Shown here: positions 28,144 to 50,120 of the stretch, piece by piece
Layout: each line of letters begins with the position of its first letter
Position numbering within the stretch: the stretch's first letter is position 1
Source of the DNA: Thermodesulfovibrionia bacterium
Lineage (GTDB): Bacteria; Nitrospirota; Thermodesulfovibrionia; UBA6902
Length of the DNA: 64,000 nt
Reading direction: 5' to 3'
Assembly (NCBI GenBank): GCA_030646035.1
Contig: JAUSMY010000030.1
Coordinates: 46,434 to 110,433 of the forward strand
Translations under genes and position numbers: made by a program
Notes under the pieces: generated by a model
Told to the model about the DNA's origin: nothing
The model's database searches: none
The model's input: only the letters and a program-made list of their open reading frames with translations

Positions 28144-28144
28144 A

Positions 28145-31826: not shown

Positions 31827-33338
31827 TTACTGTTTTATCTTATCGTCCTGCTTGGATTGCGGCTTATCATTTTTCGGAGACAGTTTAAACACATATCCTC
31901 CGGAGTCCTCAAATACCTTTGTTGCAATGGGATCATCTGTCAGTCTTTTATATAAAGAATCATGATCTTTATCGAGAAAGACATACCTGGAGTTGAACTC
32001 CTCGATGATAAGCCTGCCCGGTTCATACTTTTGCCCCTTTGTTATCTTCCTGTAGAGTGCTGATTTATCCTTGTCATATGAATAGAGATACATGGGGTCC
32101 AGCCCAACTATATAATAATTTTTACTGTTGTAGAAAAAGAGGAACGGAAAGTCATCCCAGTCAGCATTAAATACTATATCGCCTGCTGAGGTGTTCTTCT
32201 CGAGCCACTTTGCCGAGCCCATATAGTTTTCAGGGCTTGTGGATGTACTGCTTTCGCTGACAGCTTCTTTGAAATTATAGTTCATCAATGGCAGTAAAAG
32301 AATAAATCCTGCAAGGATAAACTTCCAGGAGACCCTGCGCCCGACCACAAGGGATGCGGAAAGAAATGCAAATACAGGCCAGTATTCGACAAACCGCCTT
32401 GACTTGAACGTCATGAAGAGAAAGAGCAGGCTGAGACAGACAGAGGCATACTCCTCACGTTTAATATTTTTTATCATAGGCAGGAAAAGGATCGTCAGCG
32501 GGAATACCAGAAAGACAGGGAGGGAGTTTCTGACAAAATCCCAGGTCTGGTAAGGCTTCCATTCGCTTCCAAGCTGTATTCCAGAAGGATTTTCAAGGAA
32601 TGTGCGTGAAATATTATAGATAAGAGAAGTTACATTGCCGGGGAAGTAAGGGTTTATGACAAGGCCTGTAACTATCCCCAGAAGCGTCATGTAAAATATC
32701 TTCATATCCGGCCTCTTCTCTACCAGCCATCCTGAAACAATGAAGACAAGCGAAAAGATGATGAGAAGAGGGAATGCGTCATACAGCCAGACAAAGAGGA
32801 CAGAGCTGATATATATGAGCAGATATTGCCTCTTCATACAGAAGAGGAATATCAGAAGTAAGGCTGCAAGCGACAGGCTCTGCACCCTCAATAGCGACAT
32901 CCTGAAGAGAAAGGGATGTGATGACATGATTGCGGCAAAGCTCCATAATGACGGGAGTCTTACTCCGGCAGAGTTCAAGAGGATATACAGGGAAAGCCCC
33001 ATGAACGAAGCAAATAACACTGTGGCATACTTGCCGCCGAGCATAAGATTCCCATATGTGAATGGAACTATTAGATAGTGGAAGAGCAGGTGATGGTCTC
33101 TGTACGCGTCTTTGTGGATAGTATACTGAAGCCATGGAAGCTTTTCTATATACCCTTTTTCAGCAAGGATGGCGCTGTACTTGATGTGAAAGAAGCCGTC
33201 ATAACCTACAAGCCACGGGACTGAGAACTGGATATAAAAAAAGATATAGAACGTAATGATAAAAAAGAATAACGACTTAATAAAAAATGGCGTCTCTTTA
33301 AAAAGATTCATCTTTGAACAGTAGTTCCTGATTTCCAT
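31827..33338 (-). CDS. polytopic membrane protein, probable GT-C-like glycosyltransferase
   Basis: More than 10 TM segments, an early loop motif GYDGFFH, and a soluble C-terminal domain of about 130 aa. Architecture parallels the adjacent GT-C gene. Family not recognised with certainty. Confidence 0.45.
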   Translation of the reverse strand: MEIRNYCSKMNLFKETPFFIKSLFFFIITFYIFFYIQFSVPWLVGYDGFFHIKYSAILAEKGYIEKLPWLQYTIHKDAYRDHHLLFHYLIVPFTYGNLMLGGKYATVLFASFMGLSLYILLNSAGVRLPSLWSFAAIMSSHPFLFRMSLLRVQSLSLAALLLIFLFCMKRQYLLIYISSVLFVWLYDAFPLLIIFSLVFIVSGWLVEKRPDMKIFYMTLLGIVTGLVINPYFPGNVTSLIYNISRTFLENPSGIQLGSEWKPYQTWDFVRNSLPVFLVFPLTILFLPMIKNIKREEYASVCLSLLFLFMTFKSRRFVEYWPVFAFLSASLVVGRRVSWKFILAGFILLLPLMNYNFKEAVSESSTSTSPENYMGSAKWLEKNTSAGDIVFNADWDDFPFLFFYNSKNYYIVGLDPMYLYSYDKDKSALYRKITKGQKYEPGRLIIEEFNSRYVFLDKDHDSLYKRLTDDPIATKVFEDSGGYVFKLSPKNDKPQSKQDDKIKQ

Positions 33339-33394: not shown

Positions 33395-36220
33395 CTAAAG
33401 AAATTTTAAAGGCTTCTTGTCCTCAGGGTCCACTACCAGTTCTCTTTTAAAGAAAGCCTTGGCATCAGCCGTGTCTCCGGCTCCTATGCTTGCAAGCCCG
33501 GCATAGTAATTTGCATCGTCATACTGTGGGTCCCTCTCCAGACATCTCCTGAACCATTTGAGCGAGTCAGCATAGGCTTTTTGTTTGTAATAAGTCCGTC
33601 CCAACCAAAACATGGTGTCAGCATTGTCCGGATTGATCTTAAGAGCTTCATTGAAGAGCAGTATGGCTTCATCATACTTGCCCTGCCAGTAGACGGCCTT
33701 AGCGATCCTGTGCCTTATTTTATAGTAGCCGGGGTCATCATTAAGAATTTCCCTGAGCACAGCTTCTTCTTCAGCGTACATATCGAAACTCATAAGCCAT
33801 TTCGCCAGGCTGTTTTTTCTGTCTGATGACGGAAATTCAGAAGCCGCCTGCCGGTAGCTTGAAAGAATGTGCGACGGGAACTGCTCCTGAAACCCTTCAA
33901 CATGCCTCTCTGCCATTTTATAAAAGACGCGGCTGTAAGGGAATTCACGGTCGACCTGATAATAATAGGTGACCAGGTCATACCAGTCAATTGGCGATCC
34001 GGTAAAGATATTTCGTTCTGCCTTATCTGCCGAATAGTTACCAATGATACTATCCACAAATCTTTTGATGCCGCGGTGTTTCAGCCTTGATACCTCAAAT
34101 TCAAGCTCGGGAAGGTCCAGGGTGTTCAGCGGCGCCTTAGAGCCGGCAGAGATATGATCAAAGGCGTTTGCAGAAACAAAAGCATACCTCAATGTCTTAA
34201 TATCAATACTGTGTTCGCGCAGAAAGAAGTCCTTAAGCCCTTTATTGGAGAATACCTTCTCCTCCTGGCGCAGTTTCAAAGGTTCATCAGAGCAGAGGAG
34301 CAGAAAATATGACGGCTTCATTATCGCCACCCAGCAGTATTTGAACTCAGAGCTAAGGCTCTTCAGGATTATATCCATGCCTTTGTCACCCACTCTGGAA
34401 TCAAGCCATGTCGTGTATATCCCTCCCTTTTTCAGCTTTGTCTTGACATCCCGGAAAAAATCAACTGTATAGAGTTTGCTCGAGCTGAAGTAGAGCGGGG
34501 AGGTGACTGTGTTCAGGATAAGGTCATATTTTTTGTCTGTGATCTTTGTATACCGTATCCCGTCATCGCTTATGATATTGACATTCTTTCTCGAAGCAAT
34601 ATCAAAATTATGCATGCTCAACATCGGCTGTTTCTCTATGATAATAGAGCTTATCTCCACCACATCAAGATGGTCAAATATCTGTCCGACCGTTCCTGCC
34701 GTAGCCCCGCTTCCGAGGCCGAGTACCATCGCGCTATCAGTCGAATGTGACGGAAGGCTTGAGAGTACACCGACTATATATTCAGCCGCTGAGTTAAGCG
34801 CGATACTGGTGAAACCGTTAATAAAGAAGAATTCCTGGCCGTCCATCCTGTTTATCGCAAAGGTCTCATCATATTTCTTAAACCTCTTTCCGCTTTCATA
34901 GGACTTGAGCTCTTTTTCATACCTGTTTTTAGATGTGAATGAGAGGTAGTCCAGATACAGGATGTCCTCATTCCAGAAGGTATGAAGCAGAAACACACCT
35001 GCAAGAGCTGCTGCACAAACAACAGCCGCAGCCTTTTTTGCCTGCCATTTTGTAATTAAAAACGCTGCTGACAGCATAAATATTATCATGACGATTATCT
35101 GGCCGTACTCAAAATTAGGGTGTATGACAAGCACCATCAAAAGATACCCTGCGGCATTGGCAAGGCTCGAGACAAAGAGCAGATGCCCCGACTCCTTGGC
35201 AACGTTCTCCTCCTGTTTTATAAGGGAAGGGATGGCAGCGCCGAAGCATATGGTGCCGGGCCCCATTATCAGAAAGAGTATTATTATCTTCCAGAGAAGA
35301 GGAGAAAATGAGTTAAACAGGCTGAAATAAGCAGCATACAATTTCACAAAATACGAAAAGCCCGGTATCAGTAAGGTCAGATACAGCAGGTTGAAGAAAA
35401 GAAGCGCGGCAAAACTTATATTGAATTTACGGCCGAGCAATGTGCCGAAAGCGATGCCGAACAAGACCACCCCCAGTACCATTGCAAAGGTCTCATTGAA
35501 CGGGCCGAAGATAAACTCCGCGATCTTAAGCCCCAAAAGCTGGAATACTGCGCTCGCTATGCTCAGGATTATCAGCGGAAGGATCACTCTCAGAGGATAT
35601 GCCACCTCTTCCATCCGGCCGATCTGCGGAACAATATGCCTGCGCCTCAGAAAAAGCGCGAGGCCGATTATAAGATTGAACTCACCTATTAAAAATGCCG
35701 TGTTCCTGATGCCGAGATGTCTTATAAGATAAAATTCTATAACTATGGCGGTCACAGCCGCGCCAAAGTTGTAGATCATGTAAGTTATCGCAAAGACATT
35801 TCCTTTTCGAAGGTGTTTCAGGTATGCAGAGAACAAAGGCAGGCTCACGCCAACGAGGCAGGCAGGAATAGCAAGAAGGATACTGGATGCCAGAACGCTC
35901 ATGCCTATGGAATTGGCAGGCAGGACATTATAAAGGAATGCCTCAATACCCGGTGTTAATAAAGTAAATCCTATTGCATAAAAACCTATGCAGATCTCAA
36001 CCGCCCATAGATAGCGCGATATCCTGTGAGCCAGTTTGGTTCCGATGCCGATACCAAGAAGAAATGTGAGCAGAAGCGACGCGTTGACTATGAAATGGTC
36101 GCCTATCAGGTTCCCCAGCATGCGGGAGTAGATAACTTCATAGGAAATTCCGCAAAAGCCGGAGAGGAATAGCGTTACTCCGATTATCAGAATATCAGAT
36201 CTGTTTGAGATTTTAGACAT
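33395..36220 (-). CDS. fused polytopic membrane domain / spermidine synthase-like (aminopropyl- or methyltransferase fold) / TPR protein
   Basis: About 400 aa of TM segments, then VLGLGSGATAGTV ... VVEIS ... YDLILNTVTSP ... LYTVDFF ... LKKGGIY (SpeE-like Rossmann fold), then C-terminal TPR repeats (AILLFNEALKINPDNADTMFWLGRTYYKQ). Confidence 0.7.
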   Translation of the reverse strand: MSKISNRSDILIIGVTLFLSGFCGISYEVIYSRMLGNLIGDHFIVNASLLLTFLLGIGIGTKLAHRISRYLWAVEICIGFYAIGFTLLTPGIEAFLYNVLPANSIGMSVLASSILLAIPACLVGVSLPLFSAYLKHLRKGNVFAITYMIYNFGAAVTAIVIEFYLIRHLGIRNTAFLIGEFNLIIGLALFLRRRHIVPQIGRMEEVAYPLRVILPLIILSIASAVFQLLGLKIAEFIFGPFNETFAMVLGVVLFGIAFGTLLGRKFNISFAALLFFNLLYLTLLIPGFSYFVKLYAAYFSLFNSFSPLLWKIIILFLIMGPGTICFGAAIPSLIKQEENVAKESGHLLFVSSLANAAGYLLMVLVIHPNFEYGQIIVMIIFMLSAAFLITKWQAKKAAAVVCAAALAGVFLLHTFWNEDILYLDYLSFTSKNRYEKELKSYESGKRFKKYDETFAINRMDGQEFFFINGFTSIALNSAAEYIVGVLSSLPSHSTDSAMVLGLGSGATAGTVGQIFDHLDVVEISSIIIEKQPMLSMHNFDIASRKNVNIISDDGIRYTKITDKKYDLILNTVTSPLYFSSSKLYTVDFFRDVKTKLKKGGIYTTWLDSRVGDKGMDIILKSLSSEFKYCWVAIMKPSYFLLLCSDEPLKLRQEEKVFSNKGLKDFFLREHSIDIKTLRYAFVSANAFDHISAGSKAPLNTLDLPELEFEVSRLKHRGIKRFVDSIIGNYSADKAERNIFTGSPIDWYDLVTYYYQVDREFPYSRVFYKMAERHVEGFQEQFPSHILSSYRQAASEFPSSDRKNSLAKWLMSFDMYAEEEAVLREILNDDPGYYKIRHRIAKAVYWQGKYDEAILLFNEALKINPDNADTMFWLGRTYYKQKAYADSLKWFRRCLERDPQYDDANYYAGLASIGAGDTADAKAFFKRELVVDPEDKKPLKFL

Positions 36221-36334: not shown

Positions 36335-37855
36335 TTAATGCTGGCTATTGTCATTGTCATAGGCATCTTTACCGTCACACCATCCGTCTCCATCTTTATC
36401 AGACGGTGTACTGTTGGAATTGCTTATACCGTCTTTGCTGCCGCCACTGCAATCGTATTCATCTTTATCACTATAATTGTCATTGTCCTTATCGCCGTCA
36501 ATAACTACGATACCTGAATCACATGCGCCGAGCGGATCGCCATGCCCTGTATGTTCTGCAAGGTCAGCTACATCGATCTGCAGATCACTTCCGGTACACA
36601 CAGGGGCGGCGCAGACTTCTTCACTCCACTCAACACAACCGTCATAACCATAGGCACCATTGTCATTAGCATTAAGGTTAGAGTTGCCGTTTTCATTACC
36701 GTTGCCGTTGGCATTGGAATTGCCGTTAGAGTCTTTATCCCAGCTGTTAGAGTTGCCATTCATATTACCGTTGCCGTTAGAGTTAGAGTTATCAGACGGG
36801 CATGTGTAAGTTACGGTCTCACATGAAGTCGTGCATGTCTGGTGGCAGACATACACATCAGGAGTACCCGCTGCTTCCTCCGGATCTTCAGCGATCTCAG
36901 CAGTTAGCTCCACTGGTATACATGAAGGATCAAGCGTTGTGACTAATGATTTAGATGCTATATTGCCGTCAGCGTCATGGACATAGAATGTCAGGTTATA
37001 AGAGTCATTCCCAACACTTGGGTCTGCCTCGATTTTAATATTATTAGCTAATACCCATGTCCCTGTCCCTGTAGAGGTTGCGGCATCCCAAGTGCAGGAT
37101 GCAGAAGCAGCAAGGATGTCAGAATCATTGTCGCTGTATTTAAATTTTAAGCCGGTGATGCTGCTTTCCTGTCTGCACCATTGATAATTTCCCACCCCGC
37201 CATCGGCGTATATGGTTGCCTTGTATACCATAGATAAATTGTCTTCCGATTTCCCGCATGTAGGAAGTTCATTATTAAGTATCTTCAGCGGCGCTCCGGT
37301 ACAGCCCGCCTTCACCCTGAGTTCATTGAGAGAGACCCATTTGACAACGTCATCATAAACCATGTCATTATAAAGCCCACCGGGATCTTTAATAACAGTA
37401 CCCTTAGGATAAACCTTGACACCAGCCTCATCCGTCTGCTTTTTCAAGTCCTCACCTTTACTGAAAACAACAAGGGCAATATTTGGAATCGTAACACTAC
37501 GAGAAGGAGAACATTCCTGATCGAAACAGCTTGTTACTTCCATATCAGTTTTGCTCTCGTTGCAGATATCAACTGGATTCATATTAGCGGCACGGAAGAT
37601 AAGATCATTCCCCCAGATATCTTCAGAAGTTGTCACCACTGCTTTAAATTCATCAGGCAACTCATGCTCTATCGCAACATAGCCTACTATTGAGTCCACT
37701 GCCGCCTTAACTATCTTGTCGGTCTCGTTGATTTTAGCCCTGCCGAGCATCGGAGCTAACATCTTTATCCCGACCGCCAGAAGAACACCCATAACCACAA
37801 AGACTATTGCCAATTCAACCAGTGAAAATCCTTTCTCTTTTTTTAAAGTACTCAT
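36335..37855 (-). CDS. giant type IV pilin-like protein (506 aa) with Asn/Gly/Ser repeats and Asp-rich C-terminus
   Basis: The class III signal MSTLKKEKG/FSLVELAIVFVVMGVLLAVGI is present. The body is paralogous to the four upstream genes. The C-terminal part contains NSNSNGNGNMNGNSNS...NGNSNANGNGNENGNSN and DKDGDGWCDGKDAYDND. Confidence 0.85.
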   Translation of the reverse strand: MSTLKKEKGFSLVELAIVFVVMGVLLAVGIKMLAPMLGRAKINETDKIVKAAVDSIVGYVAIEHELPDEFKAVVTTSEDIWGNDLIFRAANMNPVDICNESKTDMEVTSCFDQECSPSRSVTIPNIALVVFSKGEDLKKQTDEAGVKVYPKGTVIKDPGGLYNDMVYDDVVKWVSLNELRVKAGCTGAPLKILNNELPTCGKSEDNLSMVYKATIYADGGVGNYQWCRQESSITGLKFKYSDNDSDILAASASCTWDAATSTGTGTWVLANNIKIEADPSVGNDSYNLTFYVHDADGNIASKSLVTTLDPSCIPVELTAEIAEDPEEAAGTPDVYVCHQTCTTSCETVTYTCPSDNSNSNGNGNMNGNSNSWDKDSNGNSNANGNGNENGNSNLNANDNGAYGYDGCVEWSEEVCAAPVCTGSDLQIDVADLAEHTGHGDPLGACDSGIVVIDGDKDNDNYSDKDEYDCSGGSKDGISNSNSTPSDKDGDGWCDGKDAYDNDNSQH

Positions 37856-38143
37856 AATAACCTCCTTATTTACCTTCTCAAATATGTCAATTGTTATTGA
37901 TGAAATAACTATTTTGTAATATACAAAGCAATTTTCATACCCAATAAAATAATTTACTTATTTTAAAATATATTTTAATCAAACCAAGCTAACCTGCTGT
38001 AAAATATGTTTTTTCTACACATACCAGCATGAAGGCATCTGCTTTATTGAATGATTTCATTATCTACTCAGTATTAACCCCTATATTCATGGGTGAAATA
38101 ACCCTATTTCGTGATTTAATGATAACAGATTAAGAGGATTAAA

Positions 38144-38160
38144 CAACTGTCTAAGAATTA
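38144..38160 (-). promoter_or_regulatory. copy of the recurrent pilin-locus motif (minus strand TAATTCTTAGACAGTTG)
   Basis: Plus strand caactgtctaagaatta matches 53244-53260 exactly. Lies in the 345-bp intergenic region upstream of the 506-aa pilin gene. Confidence 0.4.
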
Positions 38161-38200
38161 GACATCTTTACTTAAAGGCAATTCCTAAAAATACAAAACA

Positions 38201-39505
38201 TCAATGGGTAGTATATTCAACAATAGTACAAGTGGATGGGGTACCTGCAATCCAGTCAGTCATTTCAACAATGCCGTTAAGGTCAGTATCCTCGGCAGAA
38301 AAGTTACCATACGTTTTGTAACATGGTGTATCAACGCAACCTAATTGGCTAAATATCTCAGCAGTCTGCCCATAGAGGATATTCATGATATCGCCTTGCG
38401 GCCATGTTGTACAGATACCGCCATTTTTCTTAAATCTGTAGTCAGCCCCGGTATTATTTACTACATCCAGAGAAGTACAGCCTGGATCTATCGACAGCAC
38501 AAATGATTTACTTGTAACTTTATCACGGCCGCCTACTGCTGGATCATTATTATCCCTGACATAGAATTTGAACTTATACGAGTCAGGATCCTTATTAGGC
38601 CGGCCTGAGATGATAAGAGAATTAGACTGTATCCAATTGCCCCCATCCTCAACTTCGTTGACACAACCATCAGTCTCATCCACAGGGTCATTAGCAGTCG
38701 AAGGAACAGAAGTGGAAAGATCATCAGCTACAAATGTCAGGCCTGAATCGCTGCTCTCCTCCCTGCACCACTTATATTTACCGCCTGATGAAAACGGAAT
38801 ACCACCATCAGCAAATATCTTATCACTGTATGGCACATTGTTATCACATCCATTGAGCGTATTATTGCTGATCTTAAGCTCTGCTCCCGCACAGCCTGCC
38901 TTTGTCCTCAGGTCAGCAAGCGTGATCCATTTAACAATATCTTTATATGCCTCCGGCCTGGAGCCGACAGGGTCAGGCCATTGAACAGAACCGGACATAT
39001 CGTCAATGTTCGCGAAATCCCGTGAATAAGTCCTGATCGTCGCAGAGGTAGCCGAAGTATCAACAGTATCATAAATATTTGTCTGGATATTCAGGTTAGC
39101 TCCTCTGCTCAGGATAAAAAATGCAACATTGTCTATATCTGTACCTTCATTGCATCCCGAATCTATATCACAAACATATAAATTGGTCGTGCTTCTTTCG
39201 CAAACAGTTTGTTCAGGAGTCAGCTCATCAGCAGGCCTGTATATTATCGCATTACCCCACACATCCTTGGAAGCTGTGGCCAAAACCTTAAACTCAGCTA
39301 CGGTCGGCAGCCTGTCATGTGTTGCGGCAAAGCCTATTACTGCTTCATAAGAAGCCTTCAATGTCTCTTTGGTATCGGTATGCTTCAGCCTCTGTACCAG
39401 AGGCCCCAGCATCTTGAGTCCTAATGCGAAGAGCAGTCCGACTATTATCATTACTATCGCAAGCTCTACCAGACTGAAACCTTTTTCTCTATCTCTTATA
39501 TGCAT
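38201..39505 (-). CDS. giant type IV pilin-like protein (434 aa)
   Basis: Class III signal MHIRDREKG/FSLVELAIVMIIVGLLFALGL. Shares conserved blocks with its paralogs ([51 protein letters not shown]). Confidence 0.85.
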   Translation of the reverse strand: MHIRDREKGFSLVELAIVMIIVGLLFALGLKMLGPLVQRLKHTDTKETLKASYEAVIGFAATHDRLPTVAEFKVLATASKDVWGNAIIYRPADELTPEQTVCERSTTNLYVCDIDSGCNEGTDIDNVAFFILSRGANLNIQTNIYDTVDTSATSATIRTYSRDFANIDDMSGSVQWPDPVGSRPEAYKDIVKWITLADLRTKAGCAGAELKISNNTLNGCDNNVPYSDKIFADGGIPFSSGGKYKWCREESSDSGLTFVADDLSTSVPSTANDPVDETDGCVNEVEDGGNWIQSNSLIISGRPNKDPDSYKFKFYVRDNNDPAVGGRDKVTSKSFVLSIDPGCTSLDVVNNTGADYRFKKNGGICTTWPQGDIMNILYGQTAEIFSQLGCVDTPCYKTYGNFSAEDTDLNGIVEMTDWIAGTPSTCTIVEYTTH

Positions 39506-39558
39506 GGCTCCTCACGGAATGATAAATTAAACAACTTATGACTTATATTAGCAGAATC

Positions 39559-39807
39559 TCACCGCTTTACGCGCCTGGAAACAATATTTCTGGTAAGCCT
39601 CGACTTGATCCGCTCTATTATGGTCAGATGTGTTGAACGGGTTTTGTATCTCAATGCAAAGAATGCTATCTTTGCGCACCCTAAGAGAATGGCGAACTTC
39701 CCTGCCATCGCCATTAAGGTAATGATCTCTTCTGAAGCGTCAGGAGGGATATGCGTTAATAAATAAAATCCGTAACCTATGAGGAAAATAGCAACAAATA
39801 GTAACAC
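39559..39807 (-). CDS. small two-TM membrane protein with basic C-terminus (GTG start)
   Basis: An 82-aa ORF fills the gap between two pilin genes on the same strand. Two hydrophobic helices. No homology recognised. Confidence 0.35.
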   Translation of the reverse strand: MLLFVAIFLIGYGFYLLTHIPPDASEEIITLMAMAGKFAILLGCAKIAFFALRYKTRSTHLTIIERIKSRLTRNIVSRRVKR

Positions 39808-39905
39808 TGTTTTATCCCGCCTTATCTATTAAACTGATTACAATGCAAGGATAGCAAAATTGATCGTTCAAGTCAAAGGAAATGTAGGGGATCTACCCTC
39901 GCCCT

Positions 39906-41867
39906 TTAATTATCGCCCAGCGTACACGAGCCGGTGATCTTTGCATTGCAATTATTGTTCACATCCGCTGCCCTGAAATCTGAATAGGTTTTGGTACAGA
40001 GAAGAGTAGTGCAGCTGCCGCTACCTGAATAAATCTTCCAGGTAGCTGTCGATCCAACAATTTTTGTGGTGTTCTTCGTCCATGTGTTACAACTGGTTTC
40101 GACATTTATCTTATATTTCTTATTTGAACTTGTACTATTTAATACAGTCACACCGCCGACCGCGCAGATATCTGTAATGCAACTCGGGTCTGCACCATCA
40201 GTCAATCCGTCGCAGTCGTTATCAAGGCCGTCTGCACATGAAGATTCAGGTGATTGCGCAGGAGAACCGGCTGAGCAGGTATCCACCACGCTTCCGCTCT
40301 GGCACTCTATCTGTCCTGTTGAAGCGCATACACCGACCCCGCAGTTCGTTGGTGTCACTACATAACCATCATCAGCAGTGCCGTCACAGTCATCATCTAC
40401 ATTGTCACAGTCGATGTCAGCAGCGCCCGGATTTATGCTTGCATCGTTGTCATTGCAGTCAACGCCTATTATATATCCGTCATGATCGATATCATTGGCT
40501 ACGGCAGGACAGACCCTGTCTACAAACAACGTATAATCAGGCGGGTCAAAGTCAGTAAATTTTATACAGCAATCAGCATTGATGTCAGCAAGAACCGCCT
40601 GGTTGAAGCTTGCGATATTCTGCAGATTATTACATGCCCCGTTTGATGTGGCGAATTGATTTATTACTTCATTCCGGCTGAGCGTCCTGGAACTGCCGTC
40701 GACGGTTATTTCATCCCCTTCTGCAACGTCATAACATAATTCTCCTGTAAGTTGGAAATCATGTTTATTGCCTGTGCTATTCCATACCCTGTACCAGCCC
40801 TCGGTTTCGTCACATACATGTAACCCGGGGGTCGGCCTTATTAACAGGCCAAAAACCTTCTGTGTAAGGTTGTTGTCACCATCCCTTGCATATATGGGAA
40901 GATTGTTAACACCCTCCACATTCGGTGTCCCTGAGATCTCGAGATTTGTACACTGCTGCCATGTCCCGGTTGAAAGGCTGCAGTCAGCAGAAACAGCAAG
41001 ATTTCCGTTGCAAAGATAACTCACTCCGATGGGCAGGAGATCTTTTGTCACACACCATTCATAATCAGGCTCGGTGTCTGAATCCCCGCCGTCTGAAATG
41101 GGTACTCCTCCCTGGGCATATAAGTTTGCAATATATGGAACATTCCAGGTTCCTGAAGGCAGCGAACTGTTTACTATCTTGAACTGATTTGCGAGACAGC
41201 CCGCCTTTATCTTCAATTCATTAAGGTCCATCCACACAACGATATCCTTATATGCCTCAGGCCTGTTCAGGAGGGCAGTATCGTCATCAATTCCAGCTAA
41301 TCCATACTCATATGTCTGGATGGTCGCACTTGCCCCATTCTCATTCTCATTCTCATTCTCATTCTCATTCTCATTCTCATTCTCATTCTCATTCTCATTC
41401 TCATTCTCATTCTCATTCTCATTAATACGTGTCTGCCTATTCATGTTCTCTCCGATGCTGAATATTAGAAATGCTACATTCGAGTTTGGGGTTATATCGG
41501 TAACACATGTTGCATCTTCCCCGCATTCATTAACAACAGTATCGGTCGTGCCTCTTCCGCAGATAGTGCTGTCATCATTGTCAAGGTTGTCATCAGGCCA
41601 ATAGACAAGGGCGTTACCCCATACATCCTTTGGATCCCTTACCAGCCCGGGGAACTCTGAAGCAGTTGGAAGGCGGTCATTTGCCGCTGCAAAACCTATG
41701 ACAGCCTGAACAGCCGCATCTATTTTGTTCTTCGTATCGAGCCGCTTCTCCTTTCCAACCTCCGGCCCTAACTTCATGATGCCATAAGCCAGGAGTATGC
41801 CTATCAATATAATTAACAGAGCCATCTGTATAAGGGCTATACCTTTTGTATTTTTTATAAAATCCAT
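39906..41867 (-). CDS. giant type IV pilin-like protein (653 aa) with (Asn-Glu)14 repeat and C-terminal Cys/Asp-rich repeats
   Basis: The start is at [30 protein letters not shown] (ATG 41867). Paralogous blocks are present ([66 protein letters not shown]). The C-terminus has CxDGxDNDCDG-type repeats ([22 protein letters not shown]). Confidence 0.8.
41337..41423. repeat. perfect hexanucleotide microsatellite (attctc)14, encoding (Asn-Glu)14 on the minus strand
   Basis: 14 uninterrupted units counted at 41337-41420, plus a partial unit. In frame within the 653-aa pilin gene. Confidence 0.95.
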
Positions 41868-41916
41868 GAAATACCTCTTGAAACCATTGTACGATATATC
41901 GCAATAGTGATAAAGG

Positions 41917-43194
41917 TCATGGGCAGACCTTCTCAACAATAACATTATTAAGAAACTCAAGGCAGCAGTCTCCGTTTGTATCAAGCGCTATCGCCTGATT
42001 ATAGGTCAAACGCACCACCATGCTTGTGGCGCAGGTGGCGTTTGAAGTCTGCCATTGCTCCAGCACTTCTCCACGCATAAGAGTCTTTATATGAGCGGTT
42101 ATCTCATCGTTCAATGGAACATTGTCACATGCTCCTGATATAGGATCTCCCGGCTCACTGCCAGCCCTTATAAGATAATCTTTATGAGTGCCCGGGGCAA
42201 CATTCCACGCCCTGTATTGAGGACAGATATTCAATCCGGATATCTGGCTTATTGTAAAAGCAAATGACCTCATGTCAGTATTGTCGGCATTATCTCTCGC
42301 GTATACGGGCAGGCTGAAAGAACCGCTGGTTGCCGGAGTTCCTGATATCTCAAGGCTGGTGCACTGCTGCCATGTCCCGGTCTCTGTCGCTGTTGCGGCA
42401 TCCCATCCGCAGGATGCTGAGAAAACAAGGGCGCCGTTACAGCTATAACTTAAGCCGTCAGGCAGGCTTGCGGTCACGCACCATCTGTAATCATCCGCAG
42501 CATCAGCGTCACCCCCGTCAGCCCACGGCACACCGCCTGTGGCAAAGATATCAGTATCATATGCCTGAGATATAAGCCCTGATGGAAGCGGGTTTTCAAG
42601 TATCCTCAACAGGCTTCCCTCACATCCTGCCCTGAGCCTTAGTTCAGGAAGCACTACCCACTTGAAGATATCATCATATGACTGGGGCCTGTTCATAACG
42701 GGAGTATAATCATCTATCCCGGGTAATCCCTCGTTATATACCTTTATAGGGCTGACGGCAGTATTAGTCTGAATATTAAGATTCGGCCCTGCGCTAAGGA
42801 TAAGAAATGCTGAATTATCCGCATTATCTATGGGAGTTGCGCATGAGGGATCTCCGCATACATCCACTTCTGTATCTGACGCGTTTGCCACACAGATACT
42901 ATCTGCAATTACAAGATTCGGGTCAGGGATATAAACAAGGTTATTCCCCCATGTATCAGTTGCTTTTACTGCGACATCAATGAACTCAGCAGCAGTCGGC
43001 AGGCGGTGATTTATATCTGCAAAACCTATGACCGCCTCAGCGGCATCTGCGATCGTCTTCTCTGTCTCTTTATGTTTCATCCTGTTTGTCAAAGGTATCA
43101 GCATCACAACACCTATCGCAATGAGCATGCCCACTACAACAAGGACAATGGCCATCTCCACTATGTTGAAGCCTCTCTTGTCTTTCAAATACAT
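41917..43194 (-). CDS. giant type IV pilin-like protein (425 aa)
   Basis: Class III signal MYLKDKRG/FNIVEMAIVLVVVGMLIAIGV. Same block structure as the paralogs, including [16 protein letters not shown] and the C-terminal YNQAIALDTNGDCC. Confidence 0.85.
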   Translation of the reverse strand: MYLKDKRGFNIVEMAIVLVVVGMLIAIGVVMLIPLTNRMKHKETEKTIADAAEAVIGFADINHRLPTAAEFIDVAVKATDTWGNNLVYIPDPNLVIADSICVANASDTEVDVCGDPSCATPIDNADNSAFLILSAGPNLNIQTNTAVSPIKVYNEGLPGIDDYTPVMNRPQSYDDIFKWVVLPELRLRAGCEGSLLRILENPLPSGLISQAYDTDIFATGGVPWADGGDADAADDYRWCVTASLPDGLSYSCNGALVFSASCGWDAATATETGTWQQCTSLEISGTPATSGSFSLPVYARDNADNTDMRSFAFTISQISGLNICPQYRAWNVAPGTHKDYLIRAGSEPGDPISGACDNVPLNDEITAHIKTLMRGEVLEQWQTSNATCATSMVVRLTYNQAIALDTNGDCCLEFLNNVIVEKVCP

Positions 43195-43268
43195 AAAACA
43201 CCTATAAAAAAAGAGATCGCATATTTATCTGAAATATCTTTAAATCTCAAAATCAGCCGCCTGACAGA

Positions 43269-44516
43269 TCAAGGACAGGTCTTGTCAGACTGGTCATGGT
43301 TGACACAGCAATCAGCGTTATTATCTGCAAAGATCGCCTGATTATAATTTATTGAAGCATCAGAACCGCCGCAGCCGCCGCCGGTATGCCGCACAATTAC
43401 TTCACCATTCTGTAGCAGCCCGCCGGTAGCAACAGTTGTTATCTCACCGCCGGTTGCGATATCATAACAGCCGCCGCCATTCACAAAATACCTTGAGGCT
43501 GATTCCTGATTCCAGACCCTGTAGTCAGTGCAGATATGCAGCCCGACCACCTGGCTTATGCTCATTCCAAATGTCCTCTGCGCAGTATTGTCAGCATTAT
43601 CCCTTACAAATACAGGAAGGCTGAACGCCCCGTCCTCTGTAGGCGCTCCTGATATCTCAAGGTGGGTACATTGTTGCCATGTACCTGTCTCTGTCGCTGT
43701 TGCAGCATCCCAGGCGCAGGATGCAGATACAGCGAGGGTGCCGTTGCATACATAGCTCAAGCCTATGGGAAGAGTGCCTGTAACGCACCATCTGTAATCA
43801 TCTGCAGTATCAGTATCACCGGGTGTTGCCACTGAATCATCCCATGCTACCCCGCCGCTGGCAAAAATATTTGTTATGTAATCTGAAAGCACGAACCCTG
43901 AAGGTATCTCAATCGTCAGGATATTAAGCAGGCTTCCCAGGCAACCCGTCTTAACCCTCAGCTCAGGTAAAACCACCCTCTCTACAATATCATCATAAGC
44001 CTCAGGCCTGTTAAGCACTGCCGCATAGTCATCTATACCGGGCAGGCCCATGTTATAAACTTTAACTGGGCTTACTCCTGTATTGGTCTGGACATTCTGA
44101 TTTGCCCCGCCGCTCAAGACAAGAAACGCGACATCCCCTGTAGTGTCAACAGGTGTGGCGCATCCCGAACTTGCGCATGTCTTCAGGGATATGCCTGTCG
44201 TATTTCTCGCGCAGACACTATCGGCAACTTCCAGATTTATATCATGAAGATATATAAGGTCTTTACCCCATACATCCTTGGAATTTCTCACGACTCCTGG
44301 GAATTCTAAATCAGAAGGCAGGCGGTTATTCGTCTCGGCAAAACCTATGACAGCCGCTACAGCCGCATCTACCGCCTCTCTTGTCGCAGCCCGCTTTGTC
44401 CTTTCAACCAGCGGAATCAGCATCTTCATTCCCATAGCGATGAGGATGCCGACAATAACGATGGCTATTGATAATTCAACCAGGCTGAAACCTTTATTCC
44501 TCTTCATATAACTCAT
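43269..44516 (-). CDS. giant type IV pilin-like protein (415 aa)
   Basis: Class III signal MSYMKRNKG/FSLVELSIAIVIVGILIAMGM. Closest paralog of 41917-43194 ([30 protein letters not shown]). Confidence 0.85.
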   Translation of the reverse strand: MSYMKRNKGFSLVELSIAIVIVGILIAMGMKMLIPLVERTKRAATREAVDAAVAAVIGFAETNNRLPSDLEFPGVVRNSKDVWGKDLIYLHDINLEVADSVCARNTTGISLKTCASSGCATPVDTTGDVAFLVLSGGANQNVQTNTGVSPVKVYNMGLPGIDDYAAVLNRPEAYDDIVERVVLPELRVKTGCLGSLLNILTIEIPSGFVLSDYITNIFASGGVAWDDSVATPGDTDTADDYRWCVTGTLPIGLSYVCNGTLAVSASCAWDAATATETGTWQQCTHLEISGAPTEDGAFSLPVFVRDNADNTAQRTFGMSISQVVGLHICTDYRVWNQESASRYFVNGGGCYDIATGGEITTVATGGLLQNGEVIVRHTGGGCGGSDASINYNQAIFADNNADCCVNHDQSDKTCP

Positions 44517-44698: not shown

Positions 44699-46495
44699 CT
44701 AAATATTCCCAACAGTAGGTGCTTTTAGGCACGGGGATGATATTATGCTCTCTTTCAATGCGAGAAGATATCTTTCATTCGGATAAAGATACAGTCCTTC
44801 CCCTGTTACACTCAGCGCCTTATCAAAATAAAAGAGCGGCATCTCTTTGTCACGGCATCCAATAAGATAGAAGAGCAGGCCCTCTGTATAAAATGACTTC
44901 ATCACAGGCCTCCTCAACTTCTCAGCCTCATTCCATATGAGGAACTTATCTATAACGTCTTTGTTCATCTCAGTATCAGATGCAGCTGCTATCGCCTTCT
45001 TATACATGTAATCAGGCAGAGCAATGTTCCTAAGATATATATTCTTCATCGCAGGCTTTATGTGCTCCTCAGATATGACGCCCTTTTCTTCATTGAACTT
45101 GATATTGAAGGCAACAAGGTTCACGTAGTCCTCAAATGTCCTGAATGTATATGCTGTTGTTCCGAGATAGAGTCCTCCCGCAAATAACATGACAGCCGCG
45201 GCTGCGCCCTTGCCTAACTTCAACTCCCTCTCCTTTACCTCATTGGATGTGACCATGTATAAAAGGATCAAAAACAGGAGGTAATGCGCAGTTGATAACT
45301 TAAGCGGATACTCAACCATCATATGCACAATTAACGGAATTAACAGGGCGGCATATATCCCTGCCCGGCTCAAGCCTGTCTTGCTGAGTATTCTCCAGAT
45401 GCCGAAGAGCGCAATAGCAATGGCAAGTATCCCAAATAGCCCGCACTCAGCTAATATATAAAAAAACTCGTTGTGCGGATGAGATATATCATCATGAATA
45501 AGCGCCTTGTACTCAGGATTATCCTTTGCAACTTCTGCCTGATGATACATATAGAGGCTGCTGAAATTTGAAAACCCCTGCCCGAACAACGGCCTCTGCT
45601 TAAACATCTCATATGAAGTCCTGTACATCAGAAGCCGCTCTGCATATGACCTTTGACTCGTATCTGAAATCCACCTTGCGCCTTCCTCAGCCTCACTCTT
45701 TAGACTATTGGACGGCCCGATCAAAAGATAGAACCCTCCTCCGATCCCAAGTGCAAAAGCCAGAAACCATATTGCAAGATGTTTTCTTATGGAAGAGTAT
45801 CTTCTCCAATTGGTTGTTAGCAGAGTAATAATAGCTATAGATGCGCCGAGAAGCCCTGCCCGCGAGCTTGCGAGAATAAGGCCCGCAGACATGAATCCTG
45901 CGGCAGAGAAGAAGAGCGCCTTCTTTGAATTCTTATATCCGCTGAACCTTTCAGTTGTTATGAAATACAGGCTTATCGCGATCCCTGTTGCTGTCCATGA
46001 GGCAAAGAGGTTCTTCTGCCCGAACGCACCTCCGACAGGCGGGATGTATGCTGTAAGCGCGTAAGGCTGAATAATTACCAGCGCTGATTCGATAAGCGCG
46101 GAGACAAGTATTATCAATAATATCCCTTGCTTCTCTTTCTCCCCAAGCCTGAACTGATGCAGGCTGAGCCATATGATAAAAGCTGCTATAAGGCGCAGTA
46201 CATTTATCACAAAGATGTCGGTATTCTTTATCGGATTAAATACAGCGGTTGATAAGATCAGTACAAGATAGATGAGAAAATACTTGAGATATGACGGTGT
46301 GATGAACGCCTTATCCTTTATGGCCCTGAAGACCGCAAAAAGAATGATCGTCAGTATCACAACCCAGATAAGATACTCCTGCGGGGTTGCCGTTATACCG
46401 CCTATCCCCGGGATTGGGATATGCATTAAAAATATGTAGATGATTGATAATAAAAAAACCAGGTAACGGTTTGAGTGAGGGGTTGTCTGTAACAT
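44699..46495 (-). CDS. O-antigen ligase / PglL-type (Wzy_C) membrane protein with soluble C-terminal domain, paralog 1
   Basis: Polytopic. A large periplasmic loop carries SHPHNEFFYILAECGLFG (Wzy_C signature). About 170-aa C-terminal helical domain. Confidence 0.75.
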   Translation of the reverse strand: MLQTTPHSNRYLVFLLSIIYIFLMHIPIPGIGGITATPQEYLIWVVILTIILFAVFRAIKDKAFITPSYLKYFLIYLVLILSTAVFNPIKNTDIFVINVLRLIAAFIIWLSLHQFRLGEKEKQGILLIILVSALIESALVIIQPYALTAYIPPVGGAFGQKNLFASWTATGIAISLYFITTERFSGYKNSKKALFFSAAGFMSAGLILASSRAGLLGASIAIITLLTTNWRRYSSIRKHLAIWFLAFALGIGGGFYLLIGPSNSLKSEAEEGARWISDTSQRSYAERLLMYRTSYEMFKQRPLFGQGFSNFSSLYMYHQAEVAKDNPEYKALIHDDISHPHNEFFYILAECGLFGILAIAIALFGIWRILSKTGLSRAGIYAALLIPLIVHMMVEYPLKLSTAHYLLFLILLYMVTSNEVKERELKLGKGAAAAVMLFAGGLYLGTTAYTFRTFEDYVNLVAFNIKFNEEKGVISEEHIKPAMKNIYLRNIALPDYMYKKAIAAASDTEMNKDVIDKFLIWNEAEKLRRPVMKSFYTEGLLFYLIGCRDKEMPLFYFDKALSVTGEGLYLYPNERYLLALKESIISSPCLKAPTVGNI

Positions 46496-46558: not shown

Positions 46559-48349
46559 TCATTTCATCTTACCCTTATCCATCATTCTCTGTATCATCAC
46601 TTTAGCATCTTCAAGAAGAAACTCTTTTTTTGTAGCTTTCAGATCAGCTCTGCCCGGATAAAGACTCAGTCCTTCCTCAAGAAGCCTGTATGCCTCATCT
46701 TTTCTGCGGAGGTCAAAGAGCGCCCTTGCCTCCCTTACATACAGCACAGAATGCGGGTATACCTTCCGCTCTTCTCTGGAGAACTCTACAAACTCCTCAA
46801 GCAGCGCTCTGTCGCCCCTCATAAGCCCGGCCCTCAGCTTTGCATCCATCAGAAGCCTGACGCCTATCTGCCTGAGATAGATATTATTGAGAGACGGCAT
46901 TAATAACTCGGTCCTTATGATATTTTCCTTTAAAAGATGATCCTGATATTTTTTCATAGCTATCTGAGCATTCAGGGTTGTTATTGAGAGGTAGGTTATG
47001 ACAACAAAGAATGTAGCAGAAGCAGCCAGCGCGCCTGTCTTTAACAAGCTCACGGGTTTCATCCTGACCTCTTTTATGAAATATGAAGACGGCAGATATA
47101 GCAGGAAAAGGAAAAGAGCCCAATGCGGCATGGACTGGTAAAGTGAATAACTTACCTGAGTATCAAATGCTATCGGAAATAAAAATGCCGCATATACTCC
47201 GCCCCGCTCTCTTCCAAGCTTTACAAGGCATACGATAAATCCAATTCCAACAATCAGCAGCCCGGCCCCGCCCATGAGGCCTGACTCAGCAGTCCTGTAT
47301 AAAAATTCGTTATGCGGATGTGACATAAAGACCGCTTCATATGGATATTCCGGATGTTCTTTGGCAAGCCTGCTTCGGTAATGCATGAACTTACTGCCGA
47401 AGCTGCCTGGCCCGTGTCCTTCTAAAGGCTTATCCTTTATCATGCTGATAGCCGTAAGGTACATCGGCACCCTTGAGTCCGTGACCTCATCGCTTGCCAC
47501 GCTCTCCATCGTCATCCCGATCTTCTGCCCCACAGAGCTGAGCGCAGAATCCCTTTTGTAGTAATACTTCTCAACCGCCACACTGCCGGATATCCCCACG
47601 CATATCATCAAAAGCCATATGGCAGGGTAAAGAGCCTTCTCTCTGTAACGCCCATACCTCGCCCATAAAAGGATAAGCGCTCCGGCTCCTGTCTCTATCA
47701 CCCCTGCCCTTGAGCCTGTGAGGAAAATAACAAAGCACATGAGCAGCACAGTAAGATAAAAAATAGCCTTGAGCCATTTGCTAAACCCCTTGAATATTCC
47801 CCCGGTTAAAAGATAAAGCGATATAACAACAGATGTCGCAAGATAAGAGGCGAGAAGGTTCTGGTGCTGGAAATTGCCGAATACCTTTTTTGACGCAGGG
47901 ATGACGATCAAAAAGATTCCTGTGTCAGGGTTAAAATACTGAAACAAACTTATCAGCGCCTCTATCATGCCGGAGATGAATATCACATATAAGAACCTCT
48001 CCCTCTCCTCATCCGTAAGCTCAAACTGATGCAGGGACATAAAAAATATTATCCCGCCAATGAGCCCAACTGTCTCAAATATAAATACATGGCTGGATAT
48101 TATATGGTTGAACAAAGCGGCAGGAAGCAGTAATAAGAGGAAGATAAGTATATATAAGGAAGTGTGCGGAAGCGATATCTTCCATTCATTGAATATTTGT
48201 ATCACTGAAAGAAGCACAATCCCTGACAGCGTTATCCAGACAAAATATGCCACAGGCAGGACAAGCGAGCCGCCGAAGTTCTTGATGGCTATATGTGAAA
48301 CCACAAGAAATAAAAGCCCGAGTATCCATAAATAAATATTCTTTATCAT
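46559..48349 (-). CDS. O-antigen ligase / PglL-type (Wzy_C) membrane protein with TPR-like C-terminal domain, paralog 2
   Basis: SHPHNEFLYRTAESGLMG. Collinear with paralog 3. C-terminal LLEEGLSLYPGRADLKATKKEF. Confidence 0.75.
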   Translation of the reverse strand: MIKNIYLWILGLLFLVVSHIAIKNFGGSLVLPVAYFVWITLSGIVLLSVIQIFNEWKISLPHTSLYILIFLLLLLPAALFNHIISSHVFIFETVGLIGGIIFFMSLHQFELTDEERERFLYVIFISGMIEALISLFQYFNPDTGIFLIVIPASKKVFGNFQHQNLLASYLATSVVISLYLLTGGIFKGFSKWLKAIFYLTVLLMCFVIFLTGSRAGVIETGAGALILLWARYGRYREKALYPAIWLLMICVGISGSVAVEKYYYKRDSALSSVGQKIGMTMESVASDEVTDSRVPMYLTAISMIKDKPLEGHGPGSFGSKFMHYRSRLAKEHPEYPYEAVFMSHPHNEFLYRTAESGLMGGAGLLIVGIGFIVCLVKLGRERGGVYAAFLFPIAFDTQVSYSLYQSMPHWALFLFLLYLPSSYFIKEVRMKPVSLLKTGALAASATFFVVITYLSITTLNAQIAMKKYQDHLLKENIIRTELLMPSLNNIYLRQIGVRLLMDAKLRAGLMRGDRALLEEFVEFSREERKVYPHSVLYVREARALFDLRRKDEAYRLLEEGLSLYPGRADLKATKKEFLLEDAKVMIQRMMDKGKMK

Positions 48350-48350: not shown

Positions 48351-50120
48351 TTAAAGCCCGCTCTTTAGCGCCAATTCTTTCTTTGCATTTAATAATGCCT
48401 CATTATCAGGATAAAGGCTCAGTCCCTCATCAAGGAGTTTGAATGCCTCATGCCTTTTTTCGAGCGCGAACAAGGCCCTCGCCTCTCCTTCATAAAGCAT
48501 AAAGTGCGGGAAGCTGGTTCTCTCCTCCTCAGCCCAACCGACAAACTCATTCAGGAATTTCTTATTATCCTTATTGAGCGCCATCCCAAGCCCGAAGTCC
48601 ATCAGCATCCTCTGGGCGGACTGGCCGAGATACAGATTATTCAGCGCAGGTTCAGCAAGCTTCATGCGGCTCACCCCTTCTGAGGTCAAAAGCCGGTAAT
48701 ACTCGGTCAGTTTGATATTGGCGCTCAGCGTCCTTACCAGAAAGAGGTTTGTAAGTATAAAGACGCATACAGATGCGGTTAGCAGCGCAATACGCAGCCG
48801 GTGTTCAATCTTGAAATTAATTTCACGTACAAAGTGAGAAGATACAAGAAAGCATAAAAAGAGAAAGAGCACCCAATGAACAGCAGATTGATAGAACGGA
48901 AACTCAACCTGAGAGTGAAAAGTTAGCGGCAATAAAAGAGAAGCGTACAAGCCGCCCCTCTCCCTGCCAAGCCTGAATATATATATCAAAAATGCCGCGG
49001 ATAGAATTATCAGTCCGAGGCCTCCTGCCAGGCCTGATTCTATGAGAACAAAGAGTGTTTCGCTGTGCGGATAATATGTAAATGTATTCAGGCTTGGGCG
49101 GCTGTCCATCTTTTCAGCAAGCTGCCGCCTGAAAAATACATATTTGCTCTTGAAACCGCCCGGCCCGTGCCCTATAATCGGCCTGTCTTTTATCATCTCA
49201 AGAGAGGCCCTGTACATCAGCATTCTCGGGTCGCCCCCTTTTTCTTTCATGAAACTCTCTGACGCGGTTTGAAGTTTCTCTGCGGCTGAGAATACCCCGC
49301 GCTCTTTTTGAAAAAGATATCTCTCAGAAGAAAGATTAAGGCCCAGACCTGCTGTCACTGCGAGCGCCCATATTAAAAGATAGAGAGGTGCCGCCTTGAA
49401 GAGCCTGTACCTCGTTATAAAGAGTGTTGCGCACCCGAGCAGTGACCCTATCAGCCCTGCCCTGGACCCTGTAATAAAGAGGACAAAAGATATGACTGCA
49501 ACTGCAATGAAAAAGCCTGCTTTAGCCCATCTGCCTGCTCCGCGGAACAAAGGCCCTGTCAGAGCATAGAGAGATATAACAATTGAAGTGGCCAGAAAAG
49601 AGGCAAGCACATTCTGGTGCTGGAAATTGCCAAAGATAACACCTGATGCTGAAAATGCCAGCATCGGTATCCTTGCTTCTGGAGCGAGATACTGGGCCAA
49701 TCCGATGCATGCCTCGATGAATCCCGACACAAATATCACATAAAGAAGTTTCTCCTTCTGCTCATCAGAGAATTTAAACTGATGCAAAGAGATAAAGAAT
49801 ATCAGGCCGGCTGCCAGTCCCATGTTCTTAAAGATAAAAGAGTGGCTGTCAGTTATCGGATTGAATATTATCGGCAAAATAAGGAGAGCTGCGAAGAGCA
49901 GGATATAGGCCGTTATTTTAGGAGCTGCAATAATACAGCCGTCCTGAAAAAAGGCCTGCATCAAAGAGAGAAGCACAACAGCTGAGACCGCCATCCATAC
50001 AAAATAAGCGACCGGATTAACAACAGAACCGCCGAGGTTCCTGATATTGACATGCATGACGATCAGGAAGAGAAAATATAATATCAGGAGGCAGAGATTT
50101 TTAAAGGTGTCTTTATTCAT
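48351..50120 (-). CDS. O-antigen ligase / PglL-type (Wzy_C) membrane protein with TPR-like C-terminal domain, paralog 3
   Basis: YYPHSETLFVLIESGLAG. Collinear with paralog 2. C-terminal LLDEGLSLYPDNEALLNAKKEL. Confidence 0.75.
   Translation of the reverse strand: MNKDTFKNLCLLILYFLFLIVMHVNIRNLGGSVVNPVAYFVWMAVSAVVLLSLMQAFFQDGCIIAAPKITAYILLFAALLILPIIFNPITDSHSFIFKNMGLAAGLIFFISLHQFKFSDEQKEKLLYVIFVSGFIEACIGLAQYLAPEARIPMLAFSASGVIFGNFQHQNVLASFLATSIVISLYALTGPLFRGAGRWAKAGFFIAVAVISFVLFITGSRAGLIGSLLGCATLFITRYRLFKAAPLYLLIWALAVTAGLGLNLSSERYLFQKERGVFSAAEKLQTASESFMKEKGGDPRMLMYRASLEMIKDRPIIGHGPGGFKSKYVFFRRQLAEKMDSRPSLNTFTYYPHSETLFVLIESGLAGGLGLIILSAAFLIYIFRLGRERGGLYASLLLPLTFHSQVEFPFYQSAVHWVLFLFLCFLVSSHFVREINFKIEHRLRIALLTASVCVFILTNLFLVRTLSANIKLTEYYRLLTSEGVSRMKLAEPALNNLYLGQSAQRMLMDFGLGMALNKDNKKFLNEFVGWAEEERTSFPHFMLYEGEARALFALEKRHEAFKLLDEGLSLYPDNEALLNAKKELALKSGL

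Follow-up and report, generated by a model that had tools for sequence, protein, structure and literature searches.

Results

Five tandem genes encode large prepilin-like proteins

The window analysed here is a 64,000-nt stretch of contig JAUSMY010000030.1 (assembly GCA_030646035.1) from a Thermodesulfovibrionia bacterium of the Nitrospirota, and our subject is a run of five consecutive genes within it, P1 to P5, whose products are very probably modular type IV pilins that belong to the MSHA-type pilus encoded alongside them. We confirmed five consecutive open reading frames (ORFs) on the minus strand at 36335-44516, with products of 415-653 aa: P1 (36335-37855, 506 aa), P2 (38201-39505, 434 aa), P3 (39906-41867, 653 aa), P4 (41917-43194, 425 aa), and P5 (43269-44516, 415 aa). 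The mechanically called ORF of P3 extends to a TTG at 41984; we set its start at the ATG at 41867 (MDFIKNTKG) because the orthologs P0022, P0025, and P0032 share that N-terminus. An initial annotation of the window had described five consecutive prepilin paralogs that have a multi-domain body in common and differ in their C-terminal modules, and the ORFs, their N-termini, and the protein alignment all agree with this description.

The leader is basic and nine residues long in P1, P2, and P5, basic and eight residues long in P4, and nine residues long in P3. P1, P2, P4, and P5 then follow the pattern (K/R)G↓F(S/N)(L/I)VE(L/M) (the arrow marks the predicted cleavage site; P4 reads RG↓FNIVEM) and continue into a hydrophobic helix, with a glutamate at position +5 (Glu5). 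In pilins, Glu5 neutralizes the N-terminus of the neighboring subunit. P3 reads KG↓IALIQ, keeping Gly(-1) and the hydrophobic stretch and placing a glutamine at +5, so that the distinction drawn earlier between four canonical N-termini and a fifth with IALIQ stands. The Pfam model N_methyl passes its cut-off in P1, P2, and P5 (31.2 bits in P5) and TIGR02532 does so in P2, P4, and P5 (20.3 bits in P4 against a cut-off of 16.3); the N-terminus of P3 has no match to the pilin hidden Markov models of Pfam and NCBIfam.

By alignment, the likeness among the five proteins is far above chance: the other four have identities to P5 of 34, 37, 47, or 54%, and the five-protein alignment contains 55 invariant columns. 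These columns uphold the common body proposed in the initial annotation, though not its full list of shared blocks, as one block of 15 protein letters and the block YNQA..D.N.DCC occur only in P3-P5, the third domain is diverged in P2, and P1 has no third domain. An AlphaFold2 (AF2) model of P5, built from a 22-sequence alignment (mean predicted local distance difference test, pLDDT, 80.7), places the α1 helix at residues 12-63. The β-sheet head behind it has about five strands (88-91, 109-114, 124-135, 151-154, and 177-182; pLDDT about 77-90) and ends near residue 190; residues 198-321 then fold as a β-sandwich, and residues 331-415 form a small domain of their own, here called D3. On the secondary-structure boundaries of the model, the leader and α1 helix are encoded at 44328-44516 and the pilin head at 43938-44327, and P4 has the same four modules. 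A profile search of PDB with the whole family gave matches limited to pilin α1 helices and none for the body. Each of the five proteins has 12-30 cysteines. The N-termini and the model thus predict prepilins, with a class III signal peptide and, as modelled for P5, an α1 helix packed on an antiparallel β-sheet head.

An Ig-like domain is followed by variable modules

The β-sandwich that follows the head is encoded at 43542-43910 in P5 (placed from the AF2 model), 42235-42591 in P4, 40824-41165 in P3, 38480-38863 in P2, and 36914-37270 in P1. The initial annotation had suspected a He_PIG-type domain in the LPxG...RD segment from its pattern, and four lines of evidence favor this assignment. The He_PIG model PF05345 matches P4 at 17.9 bits and P5 at 17.2 bits, both below the gathering cut-off of 24, and the Pfam scan gave no PF05345 match in P1-P3. 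The cut-off is passed by the relatives P0038 (34.9 bits), P0050 (29.7 bits), and P0112 (41.2 bits), as well as by a Thermodesulfatator homolog (locus L004, 30.6 bits). In addition, the family profile matches 13-48 repeats in giant proteins, its positions 223-280 matching 17-48 repeats in proteins of 1-7 thousand residues, and the one giant repeat protein checked with Pfam, P0148, scores 664 bits on He_PIG. A Foldseek search with the full P5 model retrieved Ig-like domains from two adhesins, SraP and SrpA, and from glycosidases (E about 2e-4); these were generic immunoglobulin (Ig)-like β-sandwiches only, with low TM-scores, and neither a pilin nor a known minor-pilin adhesin was among the matches. 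The profile and structure matches thus indicate that the β-sandwich is Ig-like and probably of the He_PIG type.

Beyond the Ig domain the proteins diverge in architecture. D3 is a disulfide-rich end domain of ~90 aa carried by four of the five proteins (43272-43541 in P5, 41920-42234 in P4, 40506-40823 in P3, and, in diverged form, 38204-38479 in P2); when the P5 copy is modelled alone, the prediction is confident (pLDDT 93.6, predicted TM-score 0.85). P3 continues past its first D3 with MopE-type acidic Cys-rich repeats (40179-40493), which match PF11617 (Cu-binding_MopE) at 31.6 bits against a cut-off of 27 and, weakly, the N-terminus of Methylococcus MopE (PDB 2vov), and its last 90 residues (39909-40178) form a second D3 copy (hhalign probability 96%, E 2.9e-9). 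In P1 the place of D3 is taken by a Cys-rich linker followed by an Asn/Gly/Ser tract (36656-36796), and the protein ends in an acidic, Asp-rich stretch (36338-36652). The extra acidic Cys-rich repeats of P3 and P1 probably bind calcium or another metal. The appended modules listed in the initial annotation were thus all recovered, including an (NE)14 tract in the head of P3.

This tract is encoded by a (CATTCT)14.7 repeat at 41336-41423, found with Tandem Repeats Finder, which is in frame and has 100% matches. It is absent from P0022, the P3 ortholog of a syntenic locus (L011, described below), which is 83% identical, and the P4 ortholog of that locus has an ~85-aa N/S/G/E-rich insertion in the homologous loop, just after the N.N.QTN motif. 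Given these differences, this loop of the pilin head tolerates fast-changing low-complexity insertions and looks like a slippage-prone surface loop. With a pilin module joined to a domain that is not specific to type IV pili (T4P), P1-P5 are, on their predicted domains, modular pilins by definition.

A P5-P4-P3 triad is conserved within a wide family

A word-indexed search recovered only about 19 full-length relatives, the named ones all from Nitrospirae metagenome-assembled genomes (MAGs) and carrying generic prepilin names. An exhaustive HMMER search with a body-only family profile, from which the N-terminal helix had been removed, gave 3847 matches at E≤1e-3, 1359 at E≤1e-10, and 331 clusters at E≤1e-30. 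The matches comprise ~30 three-domain clusters; many head + Ig proteins of 300-350 aa; longer relatives that carry legume-lectin-like modules, RTX repeats, or additional Ig domains instead of D3; and the giant He_PIG repeat proteins, which match in their Ig part only. Named sources were Nitrospirota and Thermodesulfovibrionales, and the Thermodesulfatator homolog, from a MAG, consists of head + He_PIG. A profile search of genome contigs confirmed seven loci, two of them by matches covering head + Ig, so that taxonomic breadth is thinly sampled. Judged by these matches, pilins with a He_PIG domain and variable further modules form a wide, sizeable, and unnamed family that extends well beyond the P1-P5 locus.

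The gene neighborhoods of five related loci were compared. L011 (GCA_016207885.1) is fully syntenic with the window, including all five large pilins and a small 82-aa ORF among them, and L003 (GCA_016213935.1) has a Wzy_C_2 gene, then pilins of 416, 442, and 1086 aa corresponding to P5-P4-P3, and then the pilus machinery. A further triad, of 402, 414, and 521 aa, stands as an orphan in the same MAG as L011 (L001, 10001-14067); it lies far from any pilus machinery, with genes for a VKOR-family protein and a PMT_2/TMEM260-like glycosyltransferase close by. Two further loci, L012 (2076-4467, ENA metagenome ERZ27262656) and L013 (10001-11949, GCA_036574075.1), have minimal sets at the edge of an MSHA-type operon, each with one small pilin of ~200 aa and one large pilin + He_PIG modular pilin (565 or 430 aa), a layout that may represent the simplest, ancestral state of the system. 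The family adjoins MSHA-type operons in L003, L011, L012, and L013.

A neighbor-joining tree of the head and Ig regions has three clades, P5-like, P4-like, and P3-like. The arrays of the window, L011, L001, and L003 each contribute a single member to every clade, and gene order is constant in all four loci. P1 and P2 form a deeper clade that was seen only in the window and in L011. All members of the P3 clade, namely P3, its orthologs in L001, L003, and L011, and the proteins P0025 and P0032, lack Glu5 (their +5 residues being Q, Q, Q, Y, F, or H) and keep Gly(-1). Their C-terminal extension varies, being absent from P0025 and reaching about 650 residues, made up of MopE repeats, in the L003 protein. 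The tree and gene order indicate that P5-P4-P3 is a conserved three-gene module whose third member is always without Glu5, a point that we regard as new.

The large pilins lie in an MSHA-type pilus cluster

P1-P5 lie inside a ~36-kb run of pilus-related genes at 19965-56569, all on the minus strand. The assembly machinery and adjacent genes occupy 19965-33338 and were identified with Pfam and NCBIfam: an AAA_22 + TPR protein, a GspF-like platform protein, two MshE-type ATPases, an MshL secretin, a PMT_2 glycosyltransferase, a 503-aa ORF without matches, and three ORFs without Pfam matches in the positions of MshI, MshJ, and MshK. The secretin meets the MshL equivalog TIGR02519 (267.1 bits against a cut-off of 250.2), and the two ATPases, which are tandem genes of 548 and 550 aa (22660-26059), both contain the Pfam domain MshEN and carry the MshE cyclic di-GMP motif NF053729 at their N-terminus (47.7 and 51.8 bits against a cut-off of 38). 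Because of these two matches we classify the cluster, on its gene content, as an MSHA-type type IV pilus system. The scanned ORFs included no PilT-like retraction ATPase.

A second set of five pilins, S1-S5, is encoded at 50139-53938 on the same strand; these are small (209-239 aa) and were recognized by N_methyl matches and by sequence. S1, S2, S3, and S5 are paralogs, and S5 (53309-53938), which was missed by Pfam and NCBIfam, begins with G↓FSIIF and lacks Glu5. The cluster thus encodes two five-pilin sets with one Glu5-less member each. Between the small and the large pilins lie three tandem paralogs of Wzy_C/PglL-like O-oligosaccharyltransferases (44699-46495, 46559-48349, and 48351-50120, minus strand; Pfam Wzy_C, Wzy_C_2, and PglL_A). 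The trio is kept in L011, and the Wzy_C_2 gene ahead of the L003 triad has a comparable place. By similarity, the three proteins are candidate pilin glycosylases, which suggests multiple pilin glycosylation activities.

The cluster also encodes a histidine kinase and a response regulator. Directly downstream of P1, at 33395-36220 (minus strand), is a gene for a polytopic membrane protein of 941 aa with a spermidine-synthase-like domain of methyltransferase fold and C-terminal TPR repeats, which occurs at the same position in L011. The 82-aa ORF between P3 and P2 (39559-39807, minus strand) is predicted to encode a small hydrophobic protein, by eye probably with two membrane spans; it is probably a real small gene, since an ortholog is kept at the same position in L011 with 85% identity. 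A promoter and terminator scan of 36-45 kb returned counts equal to the shuffle expectation. Elsewhere in the window, at 8001-12000, the G + C content falls to 32-34%, against about 45% in the remainder, and this region, which may be a foreign insert, contains a 731-aa ORF without Pfam match (9055-11250) and encodes a CBM9-like protein (11352-12020).

P1-P5 are old duplicates under purifying selection

Nucleotide identity between the paralogs is 47-63%, identity at third codon positions is 36-48%, and synonymous sites are close to saturation. P4 and P5 are the most alike over their length (63%), with a peak of 87% over 75 nt only; the longest exact match between any two paralogs is 20 nt, and an analysis of repeats and sliding identity across P1-P5 found no conversion tracts. 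The initial annotation had therefore overstated the DNA identity between paralogs, and the gene conversion that it had raised as a possibility is not supported, given such short exact matches and old paralogs that each have a one-to-one ortholog in L011. The sequence divergence indicates that P1-P5 are old duplicates.

In the comparison of the window with L011, the ratio of nonsynonymous to synonymous substitution rates (dN/dS) is 0.22-0.28 for all five large pilins, from which we conclude that all are functional and under purifying selection; for the same reason we rejected the idea that they are pseudogenes or decaying duplicates. P3-P5 are 81-84% identical to their orthologs, like the machinery, the Wzy genes, S1, and S5, while P1 (78%) and P2 (71%) are lower, their Ig regions also being more diverged. 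Across S1-S5, ortholog identities range over 66-87%, and S3 and S2 diverge fastest (66-70% identity; synonymous rate dS 0.9-1.3 against a baseline of ~0.4). Their divergence suggests that S2 and S3 are likely the exposed shaft pilins.

Discussion

Relation to known modular pilins

The large pilins described here follow a published concept and belong to a class that is already known: in the survey of Raynaud et al. 2021 (PMC8179133), N_methyl (IPR012902) + He_PIG (PF05345) is among the 15 commonest modular-pilin architectures, so that their novelty as giant pilins, implied by the initial annotation, falls away. That survey expects modular pilins to be exposed at the pilus tip. As in its modular pilins, modules are grafted to the C-terminus, a probable He_PIG domain comes first, and the distal modules vary (lectin-like, RTX, MopE). 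Unlike the catalogued proteins, P1-P5 score below the He_PIG gathering threshold, and an InterPro-based survey would miss them for that reason; they also differ in that P2-P5 carry D3 and in that they occur as conserved tandem sets of three to five paralogs. A literature search for pilin together with He_PIG returned nothing relevant. What is new is an unnamed family of considerable size, a D3 domain without a solved relative, the presence of such pilins in MSHA-type systems of Nitrospirota, and a triad of homologous modular pilins in which the Glu5-less member is the most heavily decorated.

The closest parallel for the triad is Streptococcus sanguinis, in which a Glu5-less PilA and the modular pilins PilB and PilC have been modelled as a filament cap that holds adhesive modules out like wings (PMC9934059). 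The likeness extends to three pilins, of which one lacks Glu5, and to modular pilins with adhesive modules, an adhesive role that in our case is inferred. In contrast to PilABC, P3-P5 are all mutually homologous and all modular, and the Glu5-less member has the largest extension (the L003 protein reaches 1086 aa). The machine is of MSHA type and the host presumably diderm, given that the cluster encodes an outer-membrane secretin, and the system described here is known from its genes.

Comparison with other minor pilins yields partial likenesses. In tip complexes of the HIJK kind, a K subunit without Glu5 caps the filament (PMC9934059), and P3 and its orthologs resemble such K minor pilins of the GspK/PilX type in lacking Glu5. 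P3 has no match to T2SSK/GspK at E≤0.1 in Pfam or E≤0.01 in NCBIfam; unlike in GspK, its modules are C-terminal and there is no α-domain in the β-sheet, the AF2 body of its paralog P5 being all-β after α1; and, unlike in the HIJK complex, none of P1-P5 was recognized as an I- or J-like partner. At most, then, P3 may work like a K subunit without being a member of the GspK family. The type IVb minor pilins CofB and TcpB, summarized in PMC8179133, likewise have a pilin domain, a linker, and β-rich domains, and are located at the tip, where they bind; CofB, however, is a homotrimer in a type IVb system, as opposed to three distinct paralogs with an MSHA-type machine, and neither protein was matched in the PDB profile search or with Foldseek. 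We also rejected an MshQ-, PilY1-, or GspK-like identity, which the initial annotation had named as possible known families: neither these families nor any Msh-named minor-pilin model was matched in Pfam or NCBIfam, and the PDB profile search likewise gave no PilY1, PilC, or MshQ.

Myxococcus xanthus reportedly holds several alternative sets of minor pilins and PilY1; multiple gene sets of this kind are the subject of PMC7541494. They resemble the present system in that a genome can have more than one, as GCA_016207885.1 does with L011 and L001; unlike them, the present system has no PilY1-like protein, and the candidate adhesive modules are built into the pilins themselves.

A possible tip complex

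With moderate confidence we favor a mechanism in which P3, P4, and P5 form a tip or initiation complex that displays adhesive modules in the manner of S. sanguinis PilABC. A prepilin peptidase would cut the leader after Gly(-1), and the α1 helix of ~50 residues would anchor each subunit in the filament core. S2 and S3 would build the shaft, and P1-P5 would be low-abundance subunits at its tip, where P3, which would need no partner above it because it lacks Glu5, would start and cap the filament, with P4 and P5 stacked beneath. From there, the three proteins would project their Ig stalks, D3 domains, and the MopE or terminal module outward as binding surfaces, P2 and P1 would serve as additional or alternative display subunits, and the three PglL-like enzymes may glycosylate the subunits. 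The legume-lectin-like and RTX modules that take the place of D3 in relatives count in favor of a binding role.

Several observations weigh against parts of this scheme. The tip location of P3-P5 is drawn by analogy, and a binding role for D3 itself is a guess: D3 alone had no significant Foldseek match among solved structures (best E 0.37). Cluster look-ups of family members returned generic database names only. A prepilin peptidase (peptidase A24) gene was not found among the scanned ORFs of the window. The pilins of the minimal L012 and L013 operons keep Glu5 as far as their N-termini can be read, so that a Glu5-less cap is not universal in the family. Lastly, the small set with S5 could already supply an initiation complex, which would leave the role of P3 open.

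Alternative interpretations

A different arrangement, which we consider unlikely, is that one or several of P1-P5 polymerize along the whole fiber, so that Ig and D3 domains would cover a thick filament. This might be a second filament type that the same machine builds with the second MshE and with P3 as its Glu5-less initiator. The cluster does have two parallel five-pilin sets with a Glu5-less member each and two tandem MshE paralogs; canonical Glu5 is kept in four of the five large pilins, which have a full-length α1 helix; the minimal systems hold just one small and one large pilin; and Raynaud et al. (PMC8179133) leave room for a location in the filament body if the linker is flexible. 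Against this, P3-P5 diverge no more than the machinery, and it is S2 and S3 that behave like exposed major pilins. Three co-inherited paralogs in fixed order also fit a hetero-complex better than a homopolymer. Neither the T4P literature examined nor the PDB matches contained a major pilin with large grafted modules, and we know of no shaft-forming major pilin that carries them.

In a related and similarly doubtful scenario, one MSHA-type machine with two MshE motors would make two products from the two five-pilin sets, initiated by S5 or by P3; the large set would then form either an Ig-sheathed filament or a pilin-encoded, hetero-oligomeric adhesive tip, with the cap P3 as the main adhesin. 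To our knowledge, an organization of this kind is undescribed among diderm type IV filaments.

It is less probable still that P1-P5 are pilin-like proteins that form no external fiber, being either pseudopilins of a secretion-type filament or envelope proteins that the N-terminal helix holds in the inner membrane and that act in the periplasm or in the export of polysaccharide or glycan. Their N-terminal region weakly matches GspG models, the neighborhood is rich in glycosyltransferase and Wzy-like genes, and the AAA_22 protein resembles a PEP-CTERM-associated ATPase (262 bits, below the cut-off). However, the MshL equivalog and the MshE motif mark a surface pilus system, and no matches of GspC, GspL, GspM, or GspK type were returned. 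The grafted He_PIG, lectin-like, RTX, and MopE modules are, moreover, typical of extracellular adhesins, and the high cysteine content fits exported, disulfide-bonded domains.

We give very little credence to an antigenic or phase-variation system working by gene conversion, as in Neisseria pilE/pilS: the tandem copies do share blocks, including the 75-nt peak of P4 and P5, and low-complexity tract length varies between genomes at one loop, but the low overall and third-position identities, the 20-nt limit on exact matches, the completeness of every copy (each with its own leader and start, with no silent partial copies), the one-to-one L011 orthologs in old, separate clades, and the dN/dS values have, at the level of sequence, largely refuted it.

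Implications

Returning to P1-P5 as modular pilins of the MSHA-type pilus, the finding extends the reach of modular pilins to an uncultivated, anaerobic lineage of Nitrospirota and to MSHA-type systems, and it draws attention to a pilin + He_PIG family that is large and yet unnamed and unstudied. D3, with its confident model, and the MopE-type repeats invite ligand studies that use minerals, metals, or glycans. The P5-P4-P3 triad offers a clean case in which to ask how a pilus tip accommodates bulky modular pilins, and it would allow the 'open wings' model of the Gram-positive PilABC to be tested in secretin-containing, diderm-type systems.

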